DNA from: Savitreella phatthalungensis
Taxonomy: Eukaryota
Reading direction: 5' to 3'
Assembly (NCBI GenBank): GCA_051599415.1
Contig: AP039702.1
Coordinates: 186,001-250,000 of the forward strand
DNA length: 64,000 bases
Shown here: positions 39,127 to 63,882 of the stretch, piece after piece
Layout: every line of letters begins with the position of its first letter
How positions within the stretch are numbered: position 1 is the first letter of the stretch
The notes under the pieces: generated by a model
The model's input: only the letters and a program-made list of their open reading frames with translations
Databases searched by the model: none
What the model was told of the DNA's origin: nothing
Program-made: the position numbers and the translations under genes

Positions 39127-40332
39127 TCACCGTCTTTTGAGCTGTCGAATCTGTGCCCTGAGTGCATCGTTCCCTGCTCGGACCAGTCGGATATAGTCGA
39201 TTGCCTCCGCTAGCATTGTCGACTTGCTCTCCTGGGTGCCTCTCAACTTGGGCACTCGGTTTGCAAGATCTGCAAACCCTTCCTTGATCTGATCACGTCG
39301 CTTCTGCTCGGATGATATGTGATTCTGCCGCTTCTGATCCGTCGTCAGTGGCTTCTTAGAAGATCCACCATCACCCTCCACATTCGTCGTCGTCGCTGTC
39401 GATTTCAAGGGCGTTCCTGACAACCGGCCTGACGGAGTAGGCGGTTGTCGATCGACCTTGCTAGCACGTTTCCGGTGCAGAGTCGTAGACTTGGCAGGCA
39501 CAGAGGCCGTCGTCGACACAGGAGTAGGTGGGTTTGGAGATTGTGGTCCAGGGTACATAGGAGGGCGATCGCCAGCGCGGGAGATGTAGCCCTGGTTGGG
39601 TAGACTGCCACCGCTGCCGCTGTGCGGAGCCCAGCTTGGCGGGGGTGGGTTCGATTGATCTGGTTTGTTGGAAGGCTGCTTGGAGGGACGTTCTGCGACG
39701 TTGTTGCTCGACGCTTTGCGCTTAACACTCTGTTTCGTGGTCTTCTGGCCGTTTGACGCCCCGGTCGCGTTGTCGCGCGAGCGATCATGTGAAGCAGGGG
39801 GACCAGGAGGTCCGCCGAACTGTGGGCGACCATCGGTCTGCACGGCATGATGACCGACCTGTTGTGGGTAGTGCTGAGGATGGGAGCTATCGACAGGACG
39901 CGCAGTGCCTGGGGTTGACGTCTTCCCGGCCGCTGCTGCAGCCTTGATTTCACTTGCAACAGTGTTCAGCCAGGGCTCCTGGAGGAGATGTCTGCTATGG
40001 GCCTGGTACGCGTGTTGCGTGTTAAATCCTGGATCGCTGCCAAAGTGAAGGCCTTCCCGCTTGACTTCACCAAAGGCTTCTGGAGCAGTGGTGGAGAAGA
40101 GCGGCGCGGGAATGCGGGGATTGAAGAGGTGTTGATTGTCTGTAGCTAGTTCATCAAGGAATTGCTCAAATGCGTGCCGCTCGCGAGGGTCGAAGATAGC
40201 ACCAGCAGAGACTGTGACTCCAAGCTGCTGATGTGGTGAGTCTGTCGGTGCAGGTGAACGGCCATTTCCAGGGACAGACGAGGTCTCTGGCTGCTGGAAA
40301 TAGAGTCCTCGTTGGGAGCGGATCGAGTCCAT
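39127..40332 (-). CDS. bHLH transcription factor (Ino4/Mlx-like)
   Basis: C-terminal LTTDQKRQNHISSEQKRRDQIKEGFADLANRVP..SKSTMLAEAIDYI. Confidence 0.88.
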   Translation of the reverse strand: MDSIRSQRGLYFQQPETSSVPGNGRSPAPTDSPHQQLGVTVSAGAIFDPRERHAFEQFLDELATDNQHLFNPRIPAPLFSTTAPEAFGEVKREGLHFGSDPGFNTQHAYQAHSRHLLQEPWLNTVASEIKAAAAAGKTSTPGTARPVDSSHPQHYPQQVGHHAVQTDGRPQFGGPPGPPASHDRSRDNATGASNGQKTTKQSVKRKASSNNVAERPSKQPSNKPDQSNPPPPSWAPHSGSGGSLPNQGYISRAGDRPPMYPGPQSPNPPTPVSTTASVPAKSTTLHRKRASKVDRQPPTPSGRLSGTPLKSTATTTNVEGDGGSSKKPLTTDQKRQNHISSEQKRRDQIKEGFADLANRVPKLRGTQESKSTMLAEAIDYIRLVRAGNDALRAQIRQLKRR

Positions 40333-40802
40333 GTTGTAAAGGGTGAAAAAGTCTGGCTATGGCTGAATCATGGCACTGCTGCAGACGCGCTAGACGGGAA
40401 TAGATCGATGTCAAGATTTCTGGATATGATGACTGAGAGCCAGTATAAGACGGTGCTTCTTGTGGTTGCTGAATGACCACTTAGCAGGATTAGTGACGCG
40501 GTCGATGGCTTACAACCCACACTGGGAATAGACTGTCTAGAGTGGTGGAGCGTCAAGTCGAGTGCACAGCAGCGTGTCTTGTGACCTCGTTGGGCTAGTT
40601 TTCAATGTGTAGTAGAAGCGGACACAGGAGAAATATGTGGTTGTATGTCGTCTTTGTTGTCTCACAAACTCGGAAACCCGTTCATCCATCGATCATGCAG
40701 AATACATACGAGCTCTTACGCATACATTGCTAGAACTCGCTCTAGCTATAGATATGGCCTATATTTTACCCCGCGATGAATCACTAGCTCTAATCATGAT
40801 GC

Positions 40803-40900: not shown

Positions 40901-42418
40901 CTGTGCTGATGGATCTCAACCAGCTCCCACAGGAATAAAATCTAATTCAACTTTAGATGTTCTCCCTGTCCCCTGCAGTGGTAAATCTGATGACTCCCAC
41001 AAGATCAATCCTGATTTGATTTTGACAAATTGATGGTAGGAATTCAAGATAATCAAGGTCGATCCAAGCTGGCCTACTGACCTGTGAAAGCATGTGACGA
41101 TCACATCTGAATCAAATCACGTGTTCAGCTAGTCTACCAACTCCTCCAGTATACTCGATATCGATCCCATAATTGAAGCCGATATATGCATGCAGCTATA
41201 CAGCGCAGTCATTCAAGAGATCAAGTCCTATTCAGCAACAATGACTATCCAGAGTCAGTGACTGTCACGCATATATTCTACGCCAGTTGTTCGACATCAA
41301 TCATCGGATGCAACAAGACTGTGTTTGATTTGATAATCCATCCAATCGTCACATGTTCTCCTTAATCGACGATGATCGTTCCGCTCGGCATACTTTCTTC
41401 GCGCAGCAGGCTGTTCTCCCAAGTGGTTATTCTAGTGCAGACGCAGAGGCTTCAGCCCATCTTCCGCTCCGCACCTGTGCTTGAGCGAGCGTCATGCATG
41501 CTTGTTTCGTGTCCAGTTGCGGTTGGTGGAGTGTATGTACCATGGCCATCTGTTCACTGCTAAATATAGGTCTGAAGATGGGAGATCACACAGGATTTAA
41601 TCGTTCGACTGGCACTGCATAATCCTAGGTGAGTGAGATCTGACTGGCTCACCTTGTACAAAACTCCTAGATTCACATGACTTGCATCTGCAGAAGTGCT
41701 TCTTCGAAGTTCTATGAAGCCACGACCCATGATAGATACCTGCCAAGCAAACATTCACGCTAGCTCATCCAACATTATCTCCGCCCTCTCACCGATATCG
41801 CTTCTCTGCCGTTTCAGAATACTCATTGTGCCCAATCATGGACTTACTTTCACCCTGGACTGCCGACTGACATCCTATCTGAATCCAGTGTAAACGTTGT
41901 GATCGACCTGACACAATCTAAAAGAGTTCATCATTTCCCGCCTGGACATTCAATCTCCTACATATTCATTCCACCTCACACAGTCGTAATTGAATACATT
42001 CAGCACATATTGTAGATACTGTAGTCAATTCATCCCTTGCCCCAATAAATCTACCTTCAGTTCCAGGGAATTCCTTTACACATTCACTCCGCAAGCGCCG
42101 TCCTACAACAACTGGCCACGTCGCACTATTTCACCACACCACTTCCTCCACCTTACCCATCCAACCTTCTCTCAGACTCCCTCGATCGTATTACCTTCGA
42201 TCTCTGGGTCTCTCTGCGCACCTCCAGTCGCTCACTTTCTAGTGACTGACTCACGTTTGCGCGCTTTCACCCACTCACTCGCACTGTCGGACTCAGCCTA
42301 CAAGAACGGTCGACATTCCCACCGCCGTCGAGGTCTATACTTCATCACACATCGTTCATCTGCTTCAACACTACCATTTGCCTCAAGTCCTAGATCGTCT
42401 ACACCTGCACACTGAGAC

Positions 42419-43702
42419 ATGGCCTTTGAAGATATTGAAAGCGTCGTCGCAGCAGCAGCAGCAGCTTCAGATGGTGCACCTGCTCCCTTCTGCGACACGT
42501 ACGATAATGACCTCGACGGCGGACTAGTCAACCCTTCTGACCTTCACATCACAGCGCCTGCGTCGCCAGCATACACAACTTCATCCACATCTTCCCCGCG
42601 CGGCGTCAAGCGCGAGTACGACGAGGAAGATGAGGAAGACGATGACGACATTTCCAACGCAGACAAGTCGACAACCTCTGCCGTCACACCCAAGAAGAAG
42701 ACACTCCGGAAGCGTGCAAAGACGCAGGAGGAGAAGGAGCAGCGTGCGCACGAGCGTATCATGCGTAATCGGCTCGCTGCTCAGACTTCCCGCGAGCGCA
42801 AGCGTGAGTACGTCACGCAGCTCGAGTCTCAAAACACAGAATTAGAGCGCGATATCAAACGCCTGACGAAAGACAATGATCAACTACGTGGCACCGTCAC
42901 CGACCTCAACAAACGCCTTTCTCAACTCGAAAAGCTCCTGGCTGTTCTGACCCCTGCCACAGATAGTACGGCATCCTCCTCCCTTGGTAAATCTACTGCT
43001 ATTGCAACTACTTCGCTTTCCACCGAGCCCATCGGCCTGCGCAGTCCTGCAGTGACTGCCTCTGACCCGCAGCGTCGGTCGGTGAGCTCACGTCGGAAAG
43101 TAAGCAAGCACAACAGCAGCCGGAGCTACCAATCCAGGAGCAACTGTTTTCCCTGGAGCATATCGCCCCATTCGCCAATCTATCGGGCCATGGAGCAGGT
43201 CCTTCAGCTTCTCCTAGCATCCTCGATGATGACGACCTACTCGGCTACGGCTTTGTGGACGGGGGCTTTGGCAACGATCTCTACGCTGCCTACCTCGACA
43301 ACAACATCCAGCCGCAAGAGGACGCTGACCTGCCCTCAACTCCACTCTTCGCCCCTGCTGCAGCACTCTACAACACTGCAGCCGCACTCTCCTCGTCAAC
43401 ACCTACCAGTCAATCTATCACGACCTTCCCAACAAACAGTCTCCACCTCCATCAGCACCAACACCACGCTGGACGACCTGCAGGCCTCGCTACAGCCGTC
43501 TGAGCCAATCGACCCCGTCACTGGCGCATCATCACTTGCGACGGACGGGTCAGTCGTGGCTCGACGGCCAACGGGGCTTCAGCAGGATCAGTTTCAGTCG
43601 TCGGTCTACACGCTAGCGGGGAGGGATTCTGTCAGTGGAGGAGTGACTAGACCGATCAGAAGCACCAGGCACATTCACGCACTAGACAAGTGGATGATCT
43701 GA
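42419..43702 (+). CDS. HAC1: UPR bZIP factor Hac1/HacA/XBP1; unspliced ORF 427 aa, spliced form join(42419..43049,43070..43503) 354 aa
   Basis: RKRAKTQEEKEQRAHERIMRNRLAAQTSRERKR basic region characteristic of Hac1, leucine zipper, Ire1-type intron downstream. Confidence 0.95.
   Translation: MAFEDIESVVAAAAAASDGAPAPFCDTYDNDLDGGLVNPSDLHITAPASPAYTTSSTSSPRGVKREYDEEDEEDDDDISNADKSTTSAVTPKKKTLRKRAKTQEEKEQRAHERIMRNRLAAQTSRERKREYVTQLESQNTELERDIKRLTKDNDQLRGTVTDLNKRLSQLEKLLAVLTPATDSTASSSLGKSTAIATTSLSTEPIGLRSPAVTASDPQRRSVSSRRKVSKHNSSRSYQSRSNCFPWSISPHSPIYRAMEQVLQLLLASSMMTTYSATALWTGALATISTLPTSTTTSSRKRTLTCPQLHSSPLLQHSTTLQPHSPRQHLPVNLSRPSQQTVSTSISTNTTLDDLQASLQPSEPIDPVTGASSLATDGSVVARRPTGLQQDQFQSSVYTLAGRDSVSGGVTRPIRSTRHIHALDKWMI
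43041..43078 (+). other. Ire1-cleaved 20-nt unconventional intron (43050..43069) with twin stem-loops
   Basis: GCAGTC[CTG|CAGT]GACTGC perfect 6-bp stem and CTGAC[CCG|CAGC]GTCGG 5-bp stem; both 7-nt loops fit CNG|CNGN. Confidence 0.93.
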
Positions 43703-44216
43703 ACGAGGAAGGAAGGAAGGGGAAGAGTGGAAGCAAGGAGAGATTCGGTACAACATCCGCAAATAGGTAGACCAGGAACCCAGGATACATCTTTCGACTA
43801 GCTAGAGCTTCATCATGATCACGTTTTCAGATACCAGATACTTTGTCCATTGTCGATGTAGAGTGAGCGAGCCAGTGTGATGGAAGAGACGATTTCCAGT
43901 GGATCTCTGCATCCATCCTGTGCATCTGATGAAGTGTCAAAGTTCATTGTGCGGTGGTTGAATCTGTACAATCACGTGAAAAAGCATCACATCCCTGCCC
44001 TAGCTTCTGCCTCAAGTCAGTCGAGAATAAGTCCCCTCACAAAGGGTATGTGGTCGTAGGAGGATATGAAGATTTAAAATTATAATGAAATGTGCTATGC
44101 ACAATCGCAAATTTCCATCTTGATCCAGACCATGAATGCATGATATATCACGCATATCATACAGCAAGCTGGGCGATTAAAGAAAGGATTTGGAAGATTG
44201 GATTGATGGAAAGTAT

Positions 44217-44252
44217 GTGAGTGAGTGAGTGAGTGAGTGACTGAGTGAGTGA
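44217..44252. repeat. (GTGA)n microsatellite, imperfect
   Basis: gtgagtgagtgagt.. run left of an AT-rich patch. Confidence 0.85.
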
Positions 44253-44656
44253 GTGGTAGGAGTGAGTGAGCAAGAAAAGCAAAAGTGTCGTCATTGATCA
44301 AAATTTTCAAAGGTCGTTCAGCTGGAAATTCGATTGATTTAAGTTTAATAGATCAAATCCATTCTCATTAGCCCAAATTCAGATAACCCTTTTAAAACCA
44401 CTCTATTGCAATTCATCTGTACATAGTATGGACAATTTATCGGCAAAACGAGTCAAAACCCTAAAAGGCGCTTGCTAAATTGTTACGTAGTATAGATAGA
44501 TATACCGTCACCAGTGATCCCACTTCCATTAGCTCTAAGCATTGTACACTACAGGCGAGCAAGGGATCAGTCAACCGATTCAGTCAGCAACTGTCTGTCT
44601 GTCAGCCAGAACACTACTACCATCACACTCTGCACAGTACTGGAATCTGTCTGTCT

Positions 44657-44685
44657 CTCAGTCAGTCAGTCAGTCAGTCAGTCAG
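44657..44685. repeat. (TCAG)n microsatellite
   Basis: Tandem tcag units upstream of the DUF1769 gene. Confidence 0.85.
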
Positions 44686-45197
44686 TTACTACCTCTGAGT
44701 CTACAATCGGGTGTCTCACTTACTTGTTCACCTGTACACGCTCGACATCTCATCAACACTATACACTGACCTCCCTTTTGACACACGCACGCACACACAC
44801 CAACACACACACTCTATCTCGACTGTCAGTGGTCTTCTGTCAAGGATCAAATCCATCAACTGTCTCCCTTGACTCTCGTCGACGTCGACATCGACATCGT
44901 CATCGTCGTCAACCCAGAACCACACACCTGCATCTGCAGCTCGGCAGTTACCTCACATCCAGGAGACATCACACTAGTCACTTTCTCCATCCAAAGCCCC
45001 CTAAAGGCGCCCGCACCGACCGCCTCGACCAACACCTTCAAATCAACGTTTCACGTTTGACGGAGCGCTCATCACAAAAAACACGACACCTGTAAGGACT
45101 GAACAAAACAAGACAGGCCTTAGGGAAATTCTTCCTTTGGTGGACTACCGATCTTGGACTGCACCTCTTCTGATTTGTTTGTCGAACCACCGCAACG

Positions 45198-61913: not shown

Positions 61914-62696
61914 TTACAAAATGCCAGCAGCTGAAAGATCGAGCGTGGCGTTACTGCCCCGTCCGTGTTGACCAGGTCCATTGGTGTTATGGCCAGTGTA
62001 GAAGCTGGCCGGTGGCGACTGTGATAGACCTGCAAGCACTTCTGGCGACAAGCGTGGGTCGTCGTCGTCCAAAATGGCAGACTCACTTGCAGCTGCAGCT
62101 CCGCGGAGAACGGAATTCTGCCGAGCGGCACTCGAACTTGGTACAACGCCACCTTCGTCGTAGACTTCCGCCAGTTGGGTTTCTAACTCGGTGATGCGCT
62201 GGTGGAACGACTTGGCAATCTCATTCAGTCTGTCATTCTCCTCTTTCAGCTGGATGATGAGTGAATTGGCAATATCCAGCTCCTGTGAACGTAGCTCTAG
62301 ATCTTTGATGTACTTGTCCTTACGCTGGCGGAATGCTCGCTGTGCTTTTCGGTTTTGATCAGCTCGCTTGCCTGATGCCAGCTTCTTCTTGGCTGAACCG
62401 TTATTGTGGACGCCGCCGATGCCTGCCATGTTCATGTCCATCCGTACTCCTTGCTGTCCTTGGTGTATAAGTCCACCTCCGGCTGGTGCGATCGGGATCT
62501 GCTGTGGCTTGGCTGCTTTCGAGGTTTGTGACATACCCACGCCGTTAGACCTCGACGATACTGGCATGACTGTGTGATTGGTAGGAGATGTGTTGGATGA
62601 ATTGCTGTCATATGAGCCGACACTACCATTGCCAGAGGTAGCGTCAGAGTAGTATGGTTCGACCTTCATTGAGGCTCCTGACATTGATTTCATCAT
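61914..62696 (-). CDS. Yap/AP-1-type bZIP transcription factor
   Basis: KRADQNRKAQRAFRQRKDKYIKDLE plus leucine zipper; first ATG 62696; no Yap1-type Cys-rich domain seen. Confidence 0.87.
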   Translation of the reverse strand: MMKSMSGASMKVEPYYSDATSGNGSVGSYDSNSSNTSPTNHTVMPVSSRSNGVGMSQTSKAAKPQQIPIAPAGGGLIHQGQQGVRMDMNMAGIGGVHNNGSAKKKLASGKRADQNRKAQRAFRQRKDKYIKDLELRSQELDIANSLIIQLKEENDRLNEIAKSFHQRITELETQLAEVYDEGGVVPSSSAARQNSVLRGAAAASESAILDDDDPRLSPEVLAGLSQSPPASFYTGHNTNGPGQHGRGSNATLDLSAAGIL

Positions 62697-63782
62697 GATG
62701 AATGGATCCTTGATGGTGTAAATGGATTGGTCGACAATCTTGTAATTTGAGATGGATGTCCTGTGTAGGATTTGAGCACACGAGGGAGGTCGACTCTGCG
62801 TTACCTGCCACTTCTTGCTCTTGTGACTCAACCTATGAGAGTTGAAGCGTCTCGGACGACACGGGCACGAGACGTGTACGTCTCCTGAAAGGGCTGCAAG
62901 ACTGTAGATCCAATGATCTGCAGATTATGATAGACCTTGGAGAGATATTGTGCAGGTGCGTGCGAGCAGCCTTGGTAATAAAGTAGCGGTCCAAGGAACA
63001 GGACAGGGGACCGAACTGAGTCGAATTTTGTGTTCCTGTCTGCTTGAACTAGACCTGTATGAAGGAACGGGCTAGAACTTGTCGGCCAGTTTGCTTGCTC
63101 AGCTTCGTGGATGGGGACCCTTTCTAAATGATCGTAGAAGGAGAATTGTAGAGTTACGCGTGTTGTCGTCGCTAGAAGACCTTGTTGGACTCGGTGAATT
63201 GGCAGTATTGACGAGCGCTAGTAGTTCGCGAGGGTCAGCACAGTCTGCGAATCGCAGGTCGTCGTGGCTCTGAGCTTTTCACAGTCCGTGGATTGGAGCG
63301 GTTGAGATGGCAGGTTCGATCGTGTACACCTGGGAGCAGCAGTCAAAGCACTTCTGTGGGCTAAGAACAGTGCAGAGCGAGTTAGTTGAATTAGACTGTG
63401 ATTGGCTCTATGTGCTGGTGCGCGCTCGTGTTGTAGTAGGAAGCGTGCGCGTAAACGTGTGGGCGTGGATGTGCAGGAGTTGCGCGCGTGGGTGTGAGCG
63501 TGTGAAGTTGGACGTCAACGCGTGATCTGAACGTGTTGGTCTCTGTCAAGCTGGGAGTAATTCGAGCTACCGGCCACGCGACTCTGGCGTGAAATTAGCC
63601 TTGCGCGTGATCTGATCCAGTTGTCTTGATTTGGATTGCGTGTGCAGATGGAGGTCGCCGCTGATGAGAGTCGATCGTGCGACTGAGATCCTGCAGTGTT
63701 GTGTACGAGAGCGCGTGCGCAGGGAAAGGAAAATATGTCTGTTAAGAGAAGCGGTATAGAAGCACAGACTATGTCGTCCTCG

Positions 63783-63882
63783 GAGTGAGTGAGTGAGTGA
63801 GTGAGGGTAATACCAGCTGTGTATCAGGTATTGTTCGATGATGTAGTTTCTTAGATGTCACTCACTCACTCACTCACTCACT
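63783..63882. repeat. Inverted pair of (GAGT)n / (CACT)n microsatellites
   Basis: Arms 63783-63805 and 63858-63882 are reverse complements separated by about 52 nt. Confidence 0.85.

Follow-up and report, generated by a model that had tools for sequence, protein, structure and literature searches.

The gene at positions 42419-43702 on the forward strand of the window, which is the whole 64,000-nucleotide (nt) stretch of contig AP039702.1 of Savitreella phatthalungensis analysed here, is very probably the HAC1/hacA/XBP1 ortholog of this organism. It appears to carry a 20-nt intron of the Ire1 type, the removal of which would switch the reading frame under stress. S. phatthalungensis is a leaf yeast and a relative of fission yeast. 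The NCBI taxonomy lists it under Ascomycota; Taphrinomycotina; Taphrinomycetes; Taphrinales incertae sedis. The best protein match of the gene, P0001, bears the NCBI name 'transcription factor that binds to CRE motif [Savitreella phatthalungensis]', and its 354 residues are a letter-for-letter translation from window coordinates. The sequence-only reading, a first inspection of this stretch made without database searches, had tied its evolutionary argument to a genome from Taphrinomycotina, and the identity of P0001 together with the taxonomy places the host in that subphylum, within Taphrinales. The Hac1 side of the Ire1-Hac1 branch that it had claimed for the lineage is therefore seen in a Taphrinomycotina genome. 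A Pfam scan of 20 long open reading frames (ORFs) in the window found neither Ire1 nor Trl1.

The gene consists of one continuous ORF, opened by the ATG at 42419 and closed by the stop codon at 43700-43702, and encodes 427 amino acids (aa) when left unspliced; no conventional intron is present within it. A scripted excision of the 20 nt from the window joins the frame of the basic leucine zipper (bZIP) domain, free of stops, to a second frame, and the resulting protein has 354 aa. This second frame is open over 43070-43503 (434 nt), provides the last 144 residues of the spliced protein and ends in ..ATAV*. As the intron length of 20 nt is indivisible by three, splicing would swap one C-terminus for another.

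Support for an Ire1 site comes from a structure-aware search. When the whole window was compared by cmscan with 4227 Rfam families, RF04247, the 'bZIP non canonical Hac1/Xbp1 intron', was the sole family at its gathering score, matching at 42.3 bits (E 7.8e-5; gathering threshold 41 bits) over model positions 1-72 of 72 with one non-standard pair. The matched hairpin region lies about 40 residues past the leucine zipper and reads GCAGUC-CUGCAGU-GACUGC, CUCU, GAC-CCGCAGC-GUC. Its outer exon-exon stems have pair probabilities above 0.97, and the first hairpin folded alone has an energy of -7.1 kcal/mol. The twin hairpins, their 20-nt spacing, the lack of GT-AG ends, the coordinates of the two frames and the peptide ends proposed in the sequence-only reading are all present in the window.

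The protein context points in the same direction. The bZIP domain is recognised by Pfam as bZIP_1 (E 3.7e-8; 33.8 bits, cut-off 27.6) and as bZIP_2 (E 3e-7; 30.9 bits). Word-indexed protein searches retrieved 11 relatives with the whole protein, 36 with the region 92-232 and 2 among shorter proteins. Named relatives include HAC1 of a Candida species and, from Pezizomycotina and Saccharomycotina, bZIP proteins of Nadsonia, Ascobolus, Lentithecium and Sarea. The 17 closest relatives, all of them read-through translations of the unspliced ORF without a taxonomic name, were aligned by MAFFT with the Savitreella protein, giving an alignment of 18 sequences (A1) with an overall identity of 31-40%. 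Throughout A1 the residues of the basic region are invariant (18/18), and so are P210 and A211, which belong to the 5' loop, and Q218, which belongs to the 3' loop and corresponds to the CAG after the cut. A look-up of residues 85-300 in the ESM Atlas gave generic bZIP clusters only.

A second named member of Taphrinales is also found among the relatives. P0038 from Protomyces lactucae-debilis is an 84-aa 'partial' protein with 57% identity to the Savitreella protein over the bZIP domain, and it is in turn 85% identical to the 339-aa relative P0010. P0038 is annotated as a bZIP fragment only, which ends shortly past the zipper. HAC1 gene models in Taphrinales seem to be generally poor, and this may be a reason why Hac1 has been little noticed in Taphrinomycotina.

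Codon usage provides independent internal evidence of a frame switch. Log-odds of in-frame against off-frame codons were trained on 19 further long ORFs from the window, with 12,318 codons between them. In the part that precedes the intron, the three frames score +0.357 per codon (bZIP frame), -0.252 and -0.623; in the part that follows it, they score +0.328 (spliced frame), -0.097 (read-through frame) and -0.423 (third frame). It is thus precisely at the intron that the main coding signal passes to the second frame. For control windows of this length (143 codons), the scores are 0.279 +/- 0.139 in frame, a range that includes the spliced frame, and -0.342 +/- 0.128 in the +1 frame; a score of -0.097 or lower occurs in 0/330 in-frame controls, and one of -0.097 or higher in 4/330 of the +1 windows. 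The score of the read-through frame is, therefore, unusually good for an off-frame. Two frames open at the same time are uncommon in the window, though not unique, as +1 windows free of stops account for 13/330 in the control ORFs and open runs reaching 209 codons for 3/362. The 144-residue tail of the spliced frame is acidic, with 15 D/E against 2 K/R, 10 aromatic residues and a net charge of -13, and from this composition it is presumed to be an activation domain. Taken together, the RF04247 match, the bZIP domain, the relatives, the joined frames and the shift in codon usage uphold the earlier proposal of a HAC1 gene with an Ire1-type intron.

Several observations weigh against this interpretation. 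The margin of the RF04247 match over its threshold is just 1.3 bits. The motif pair itself (CNGCAG-N14-CNGCAG) is of limited specificity, occurring once where 0.20 is expected per window and at least once in 17 of 100 shuffled windows. The minimum free energy structure of 43025-43089 (-28.9 kcal/mol) has a different inner fold and not the twin hairpins, the Rfam-like twin-hairpin structure reaching -22.3 kcal/mol when evaluated and -26.5 kcal/mol once it is enforced and completed. The pairs of hairpin 1 have a probability of about 0.10 and those of hairpin 2 one of about 0.04. The second hairpin is weak, its 3-bp core (0.0 kcal/mol) extending to 5 bp with flanking C-G and U-G pairs (-3.2 kcal/mol). 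Moreover, the fold of an 81-nt segment has a z score of -1.22, and 20 of 200 shuffles match its stability. A search for sequencing runs recorded as RNA found none that carries the locus. Finally, when the spliced-frame tail was searched against 1.84 billion representative proteins, only its own NCBI model was matched; since the relatives are stored as read-through ORFs, this search is uninformative on conservation. The case for an Ire1 intron rests on the structure-aware match and its context, not on thermodynamics.

Two runs of one study, the kind of which is guessed (word shares 0.16 and 0.08), each gave one contig on 42300-43800. The contigs, 42974-43236 and 42969-43125, are identical to the window and continuous through the intron, with no joint; at a depth of 2-4 they are uninformative on splicing. 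Both sit at the splice-site region alone and leave the rest of the gene uncovered, which the low depth may explain.

Based on what is established for the family, the switch would work as follows. Without stress, the mRNA would be read through to 43702 to give Hac1u, a bZIP protein of 427 aa with a basic, S/T-rich tail. When the endoplasmic reticulum (ER) is stressed, the sensor kinase and RNase Ire1 would cut after G43049 and G43069, each within a 7-nt loop, while the flanking exon-exon stems would keep the halves together until a tRNA ligase joined them. The resulting shift of -20 would replace the tail by the 144-residue acidic domain and so produce Hac1i (354 aa), which would switch on genes belonging to the unfolded protein response (UPR). 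Cleavage by Ire1, ligation, the activating function and any role of Hac1u are all inferred. The consensus of the HacA-binding UPR element, CAN(G/A)NTGT/GCCT, has a single match where 2.73 are expected for the window; it stands at 41065, which is 1.35 kb upstream of the gene, and offers no evidence.

The best-surviving alternative, improbable as it is, accepts the gene as a HAC1 ortholog and regards the Ire1 sites as relics in an mRNA that is no longer spliced, which would leave the 427-aa read-through protein as the sole product. Such a state has a precedent, as Table 1 of the 2026 review PMC13703316 lists the HAC1 mRNA of Nakaseomyces (Candida) glabratus as unspliced, and it would fit an unspliced frame that is open and partly conserved as well as twin hairpins that are thermodynamically weak. 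It does not account for a second frame that stays open over 144 codons with full in-frame usage while the read-through frame scores below zero, which is unexpected if the second frame is never translated. Additionally, both loops retain their consensus positions.

A second alternative is embodied in the public gene model. P0001 reaches the second frame by way of a gap of 20 nt (GTAAGC...CAG) situated 50 nt further downstream than the Ire1 sites, and it equals the Ire1-type model in length, 16 residues (212-227) being different. Read literally, this model states that a spliceosomal GT-AG intron at 43100-43119 makes the frame change and that the twin loops at 43047-43073 have no bearing on it. 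It is a deposited NCBI model, the gap begins with GTAAGC and ends with CAG, and the outcome is the same second frame in a protein of the same 354 aa. However, no CTRAY branch motif occurs within 43100-43119, and 20 nt is shorter than the introns that fungal spliceosomes are known to handle. The gap also sits in a lineage-specific insertion of the unspliced protein (residues 223-241), which is missing from 14-16 of the 17 relatives, and a segment absent from most relatives cannot be a conserved switch. The invariant residues and the Rfam match, in contrast, fall on the Ire1 site and not on the gap. A gene caller restricted to GT-AG introns would need an invented gap of this kind to enter the better-scoring frame. 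The window itself contains 69 candidates of the pattern GT..CTRAY..YAG, which in no length bin are enriched relative to Markov shuffles, and because it is intron-poor it supplies no local distribution of intron lengths with which the 20-nt gap could be compared. A spliceosomal origin of the frame change is thus highly unlikely; the gap is probably a misplaced intron, a device by which the gene caller reached the second frame, and the public S. phatthalungensis gene model needs correction. Least credible of all is a chance likeness, in which an unrelated bZIP gene would by accident hold a pair of CNGCAG motifs at a spacing of 20 nt as well as a long ORF in another frame. The shuffled windows yield the motif pair as often as stated above, and other ORFs of the window hold off-frame open runs of at least 143 codons in 8/362 (+1) and 7/431 (+2) cases, but chance would have to bring together the RF04247 E value, a site about 40 residues past a Hac1-like zipper, the linkage of the frames, the codon shift and site residues kept in 18/18 sequences.

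With the Ire1-type intron preferred, the frame that the unspliced mRNA would express deserves attention in its own right. The tail of Hac1u is basic and S/T-rich, containing 10 D/E, 21 K/R and 65 S/T among 217 residues. About 70 residues past the intron are conserved across the 17 relatives, and BLASTP of the read-through tail against the tails of the relatives matches P0012 with E 8e-9 over 73 residues, P0002 with 3e-5 and P0006 with 1e-4. The conserved stretch contains the motif FPW..S.SP.Y..M, whose positions recur in A1 as F244 (15/18), P245 (18/18), W246 (16/18), S249 (17/18), S252 (16/18), P253 (16/18), Y255 (16/18) and M258 (17/18). Codons start at 43072 in the spliced frame and at 43073 in the read-through frame, so that second positions of the read-through frame are wobble positions of the spliced frame. 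Selection on the spliced frame alone would let these wobble positions drift; P, W, S, Y and M are instead kept at 31-40% identity, which argues for selection on the unspliced frame, the argument being drawn from proteins, where constraint at the RNA level and at the protein level are not separable. The claim of dual coding in the sequence-only reading gains support from this conservation and from the frame being open to 43702. A further likeness at the far C-terminus to P0002 and P0006 (..L.KW.., from MAFFT) was dropped, as BLASTP gave no significant match there.

The motif is followed by a moderately hydrophobic stretch. On the Kyte-Doolittle scale, the highest 19-residue mean is 1.22 in the tail, compared with a maximum of 0.94 upstream of the splice site. 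Among 23 sequences examined, of which P0036 has no site, the tail maximum exceeds the upstream maximum in 18 of the 22 with a located site; the 4 exceptions are P0006, P0009, P0017 and P0008, and only 3 tails exceed 1.6. In metazoan XBP1u, a hydrophobic region and a translational pause act on the nascent chain. By analogy, Hac1u might in this lineage be a selected, functional product whose nascent peptide, through the motif and the hydrophobic stretch, tethers the HAC1u mRNA under translation to the ER membrane or pauses the ribosome for Ire1, a proposal that is put forward tentatively and is rather unlikely to hold as it stands.

A metagenome scan gave three loci (L001, L002 and L003). L001 and L002 represent a distant relative with the same RNA structure, which scores 34.6 bits with RF04247 and is thus below the threshold of 41. 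When the window and L001 are compared by eye at 21 pairs of the model in the cmscan alignments, pairing is kept despite a difference in both partners at 11 of them, a single partner differs at 2, no difference is seen at 7, and the remaining one has a C.A mismatch in the window. As the alignments have been fitted to the model and only two distinct sequences enter them, the count leans towards the model; it may be taken as supportive of a shared structure and no more. L003 is a Candida-like HAC1 and has no short-intron match at E <= 0.1.

The distant relative differs in the spacing of its loops. At L001:935-999, and identically at L002:575-639, a Hac1-like bZIP gene has two CAG|CAG loops that are only 17 nt apart (L001 962-978), and taking out the 17 nt leads from the bZIP frame (142-1038) into an acidic one (975-1169). 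A 17-nt spacing is also implied by the site residues of P0010 and P0016. For short fungal introns, the review PMC13703316 gives 20 and 23 nt only.

The Savitreella gene resembles well-studied systems in different respects. According to the same review, hacA has an intron of 20 nt in Aspergillus species, Trichophyton and Trichoderma reesei and one of 23 nt in Neurospora and Myceliophthora, and in hacA/hac1 of Aspergillus and Trichoderma the unspliced frame of the second exon is long and conserved (PMC13703316, citing Saloheimo 2003 and Mulder 2004). The Pezizomycotina genes (A. niger, A. nidulans, A. fumigatus and T. reesei) share with Savitreella a 20-nt intron soon after the zipper, a frame shift that exchanges the C-terminus, and a second-exon frame that when unspliced is long and is conserved among relatives. 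Unlike them, the present gene belongs to Taphrinomycotina and has an ORF without a conventional intron; moreover, the FPW..S.SP.Y..M motif of Savitreella and its 17 relatives is not seen in three Pezizomycotina proteins (P0021, P0028 and P0035).

With HAC1 of Saccharomyces cerevisiae, the Savitreella gene has in common that it encodes a bZIP protein of the UPR-activator type, that the Ire1 loops follow the same consensus and that splicing replaces the C-terminus. The S. cerevisiae intron is much longer, and its pairing with the 5' untranslated region (UTR) blocks translation; according to PMC13703316, this pairing is not widespread. Regulation through the 5' UTR is also described for A. niger. 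The Savitreella intron of 20 nt, in contrast, is incapable of such a 5' UTR-pairing block, and Hac1u is therefore probably translated. Metazoan XBP1 and plant bZIP60 offer a third comparison, as they too have a short intron, a frame shift, overlapping frames and, downstream of the intron, a hydrophobic stretch in the unspliced tail. The candidate stretch of Savitreella (1.22) is weak, and the comparison is one of layout.

The features described above are collected in the following table.

Features of the HAC1 locus of S. phatthalungensis, in positions of the window
Feature	Position	Strand	Details
Exon 1	42419..43049	+	210 codons and 1 base, common to unspliced and spliced proteins; start is that of P0001
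bZIP domain with Hac1-type basic region	42731..42913	+	Residues 105-165; Pfam bZIP_1, bZIP_2
Ire1 substrate structure (predicted)	43025..43089	+	Two outer exon-exon stems and two stem-loops with 7-nt loops; RF04247
Hairpin 1	43041..43059	+	Perfect 6-bp stem 43041-43046/43054-43059; loop 43047-53 CUG|CAGU; predicted 5' cleavage after 43049
Hairpin 2	43064..43076	+	3-bp stem 43064-43066/43074-43076; loop 43067-73 CCG|CAGC; predicted 3' cleavage after 43069
Predicted Ire1-type intron	43050..43069	+	20 nt; CA..CG ends, no GT-AG
Exon 2, spliced frame	43070..43503	+	144 residues; stop 43501-43503
Exon 2, unspliced frame	43070..43702	+	217-residue Hac1u tail; stop 43700-43702
GT..AG gap used as intron in NCBI model	43100..43119	+	P0001 is 42419-43099 joined to 43120-43503
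Conserved motif of the unspliced frame	43148..43195	+	Residues 244-259, FPWSISPHSPIYRAME; alignment A1
Most hydrophobic 19-residue stretch of the tail	43199..43255	+	Residues 261-279; Kyte-Doolittle mean 1.22

The window holds two further genes of regulator families. A second bZIP ORF lies at 61917-62924 on the reverse strand (bZIP_1 E 2.7e-9), and an INO4-like ORF of the basic helix-loop-helix (bHLH) type at 39130-40356 on the same strand; neither has an RF04247 match. The remaining long ORFs are ordinary fungal genes, including those for an Hsp70 family member, Upf2, an SNF2 helicase, an isocitrate/isopropylmalate dehydrogenase and an FGGY kinase, among others. Tetranucleotide microsatellites, (CTGA)n and (GTGA)n, occur on the reverse strand at about 44651-44723 and 63817-63881, where they flank genes. 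In ORF lists the microsatellites appear as repetitive translations of the THS/LTHS type, around 44095-44700.

The absence of Hac1 from fission yeast gives the locus its wider interest. Schizosaccharomyces pombe 'lacks a HAC1 ortholog' in the wording of PMC13703316. Species of Schizosaccharomyces possess Ire1 and have no Hac1/XBP1 ortholog, the response proceeding by mRNA decay only, and loss of Hac1 in this genus has already been inferred (Kimmig et al. 2012, PMC3470409). S. pombe and Savitreella belong to the same subphylum, in which Savitreella retains the Hac1 substrate and S. pombe is without it. The secondary loss in fission yeast that the sequence-only reading had deduced is consistent with the presence of Hac1 in Taphrinales, but as an idea it is not new, having been inferred in PMC3470409. 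Already published are the mechanism, the length of the intron, the arrangement in two frames and the fission-yeast loss; the locus contributes an example from Taphrinomycotina. The survey by Hooks and Griffiths-Jones 2011 is said to stand behind the Rfam Hac1/Xbp1 intron family. A full-text search of the literature found no report of Hac1 in Taphrinomycotina outside Schizosaccharomyces; supplements and that survey were beyond its coverage, and an earlier description is possible.

The finding thus adds a complete-looking Hac1 switch to Taphrinomycotina, the very subphylum of S. pombe, the textbook eukaryote without Hac1. It narrows the loss of Hac1 to the branch leading to Schizosaccharomyces, after the split from Taphrinales, and suggests that within Ascomycota the older state was the 20-nt dual-frame form. 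Furthermore, the conserved peptide of the unspliced frame is a candidate worth testing. If the nascent Hac1u peptide does act as proposed, fungi and animals would have inherited co-translational delivery of the substrate to Ire1 from their common ancestor, and the long intron and translational block of S. cerevisiae would be derived.

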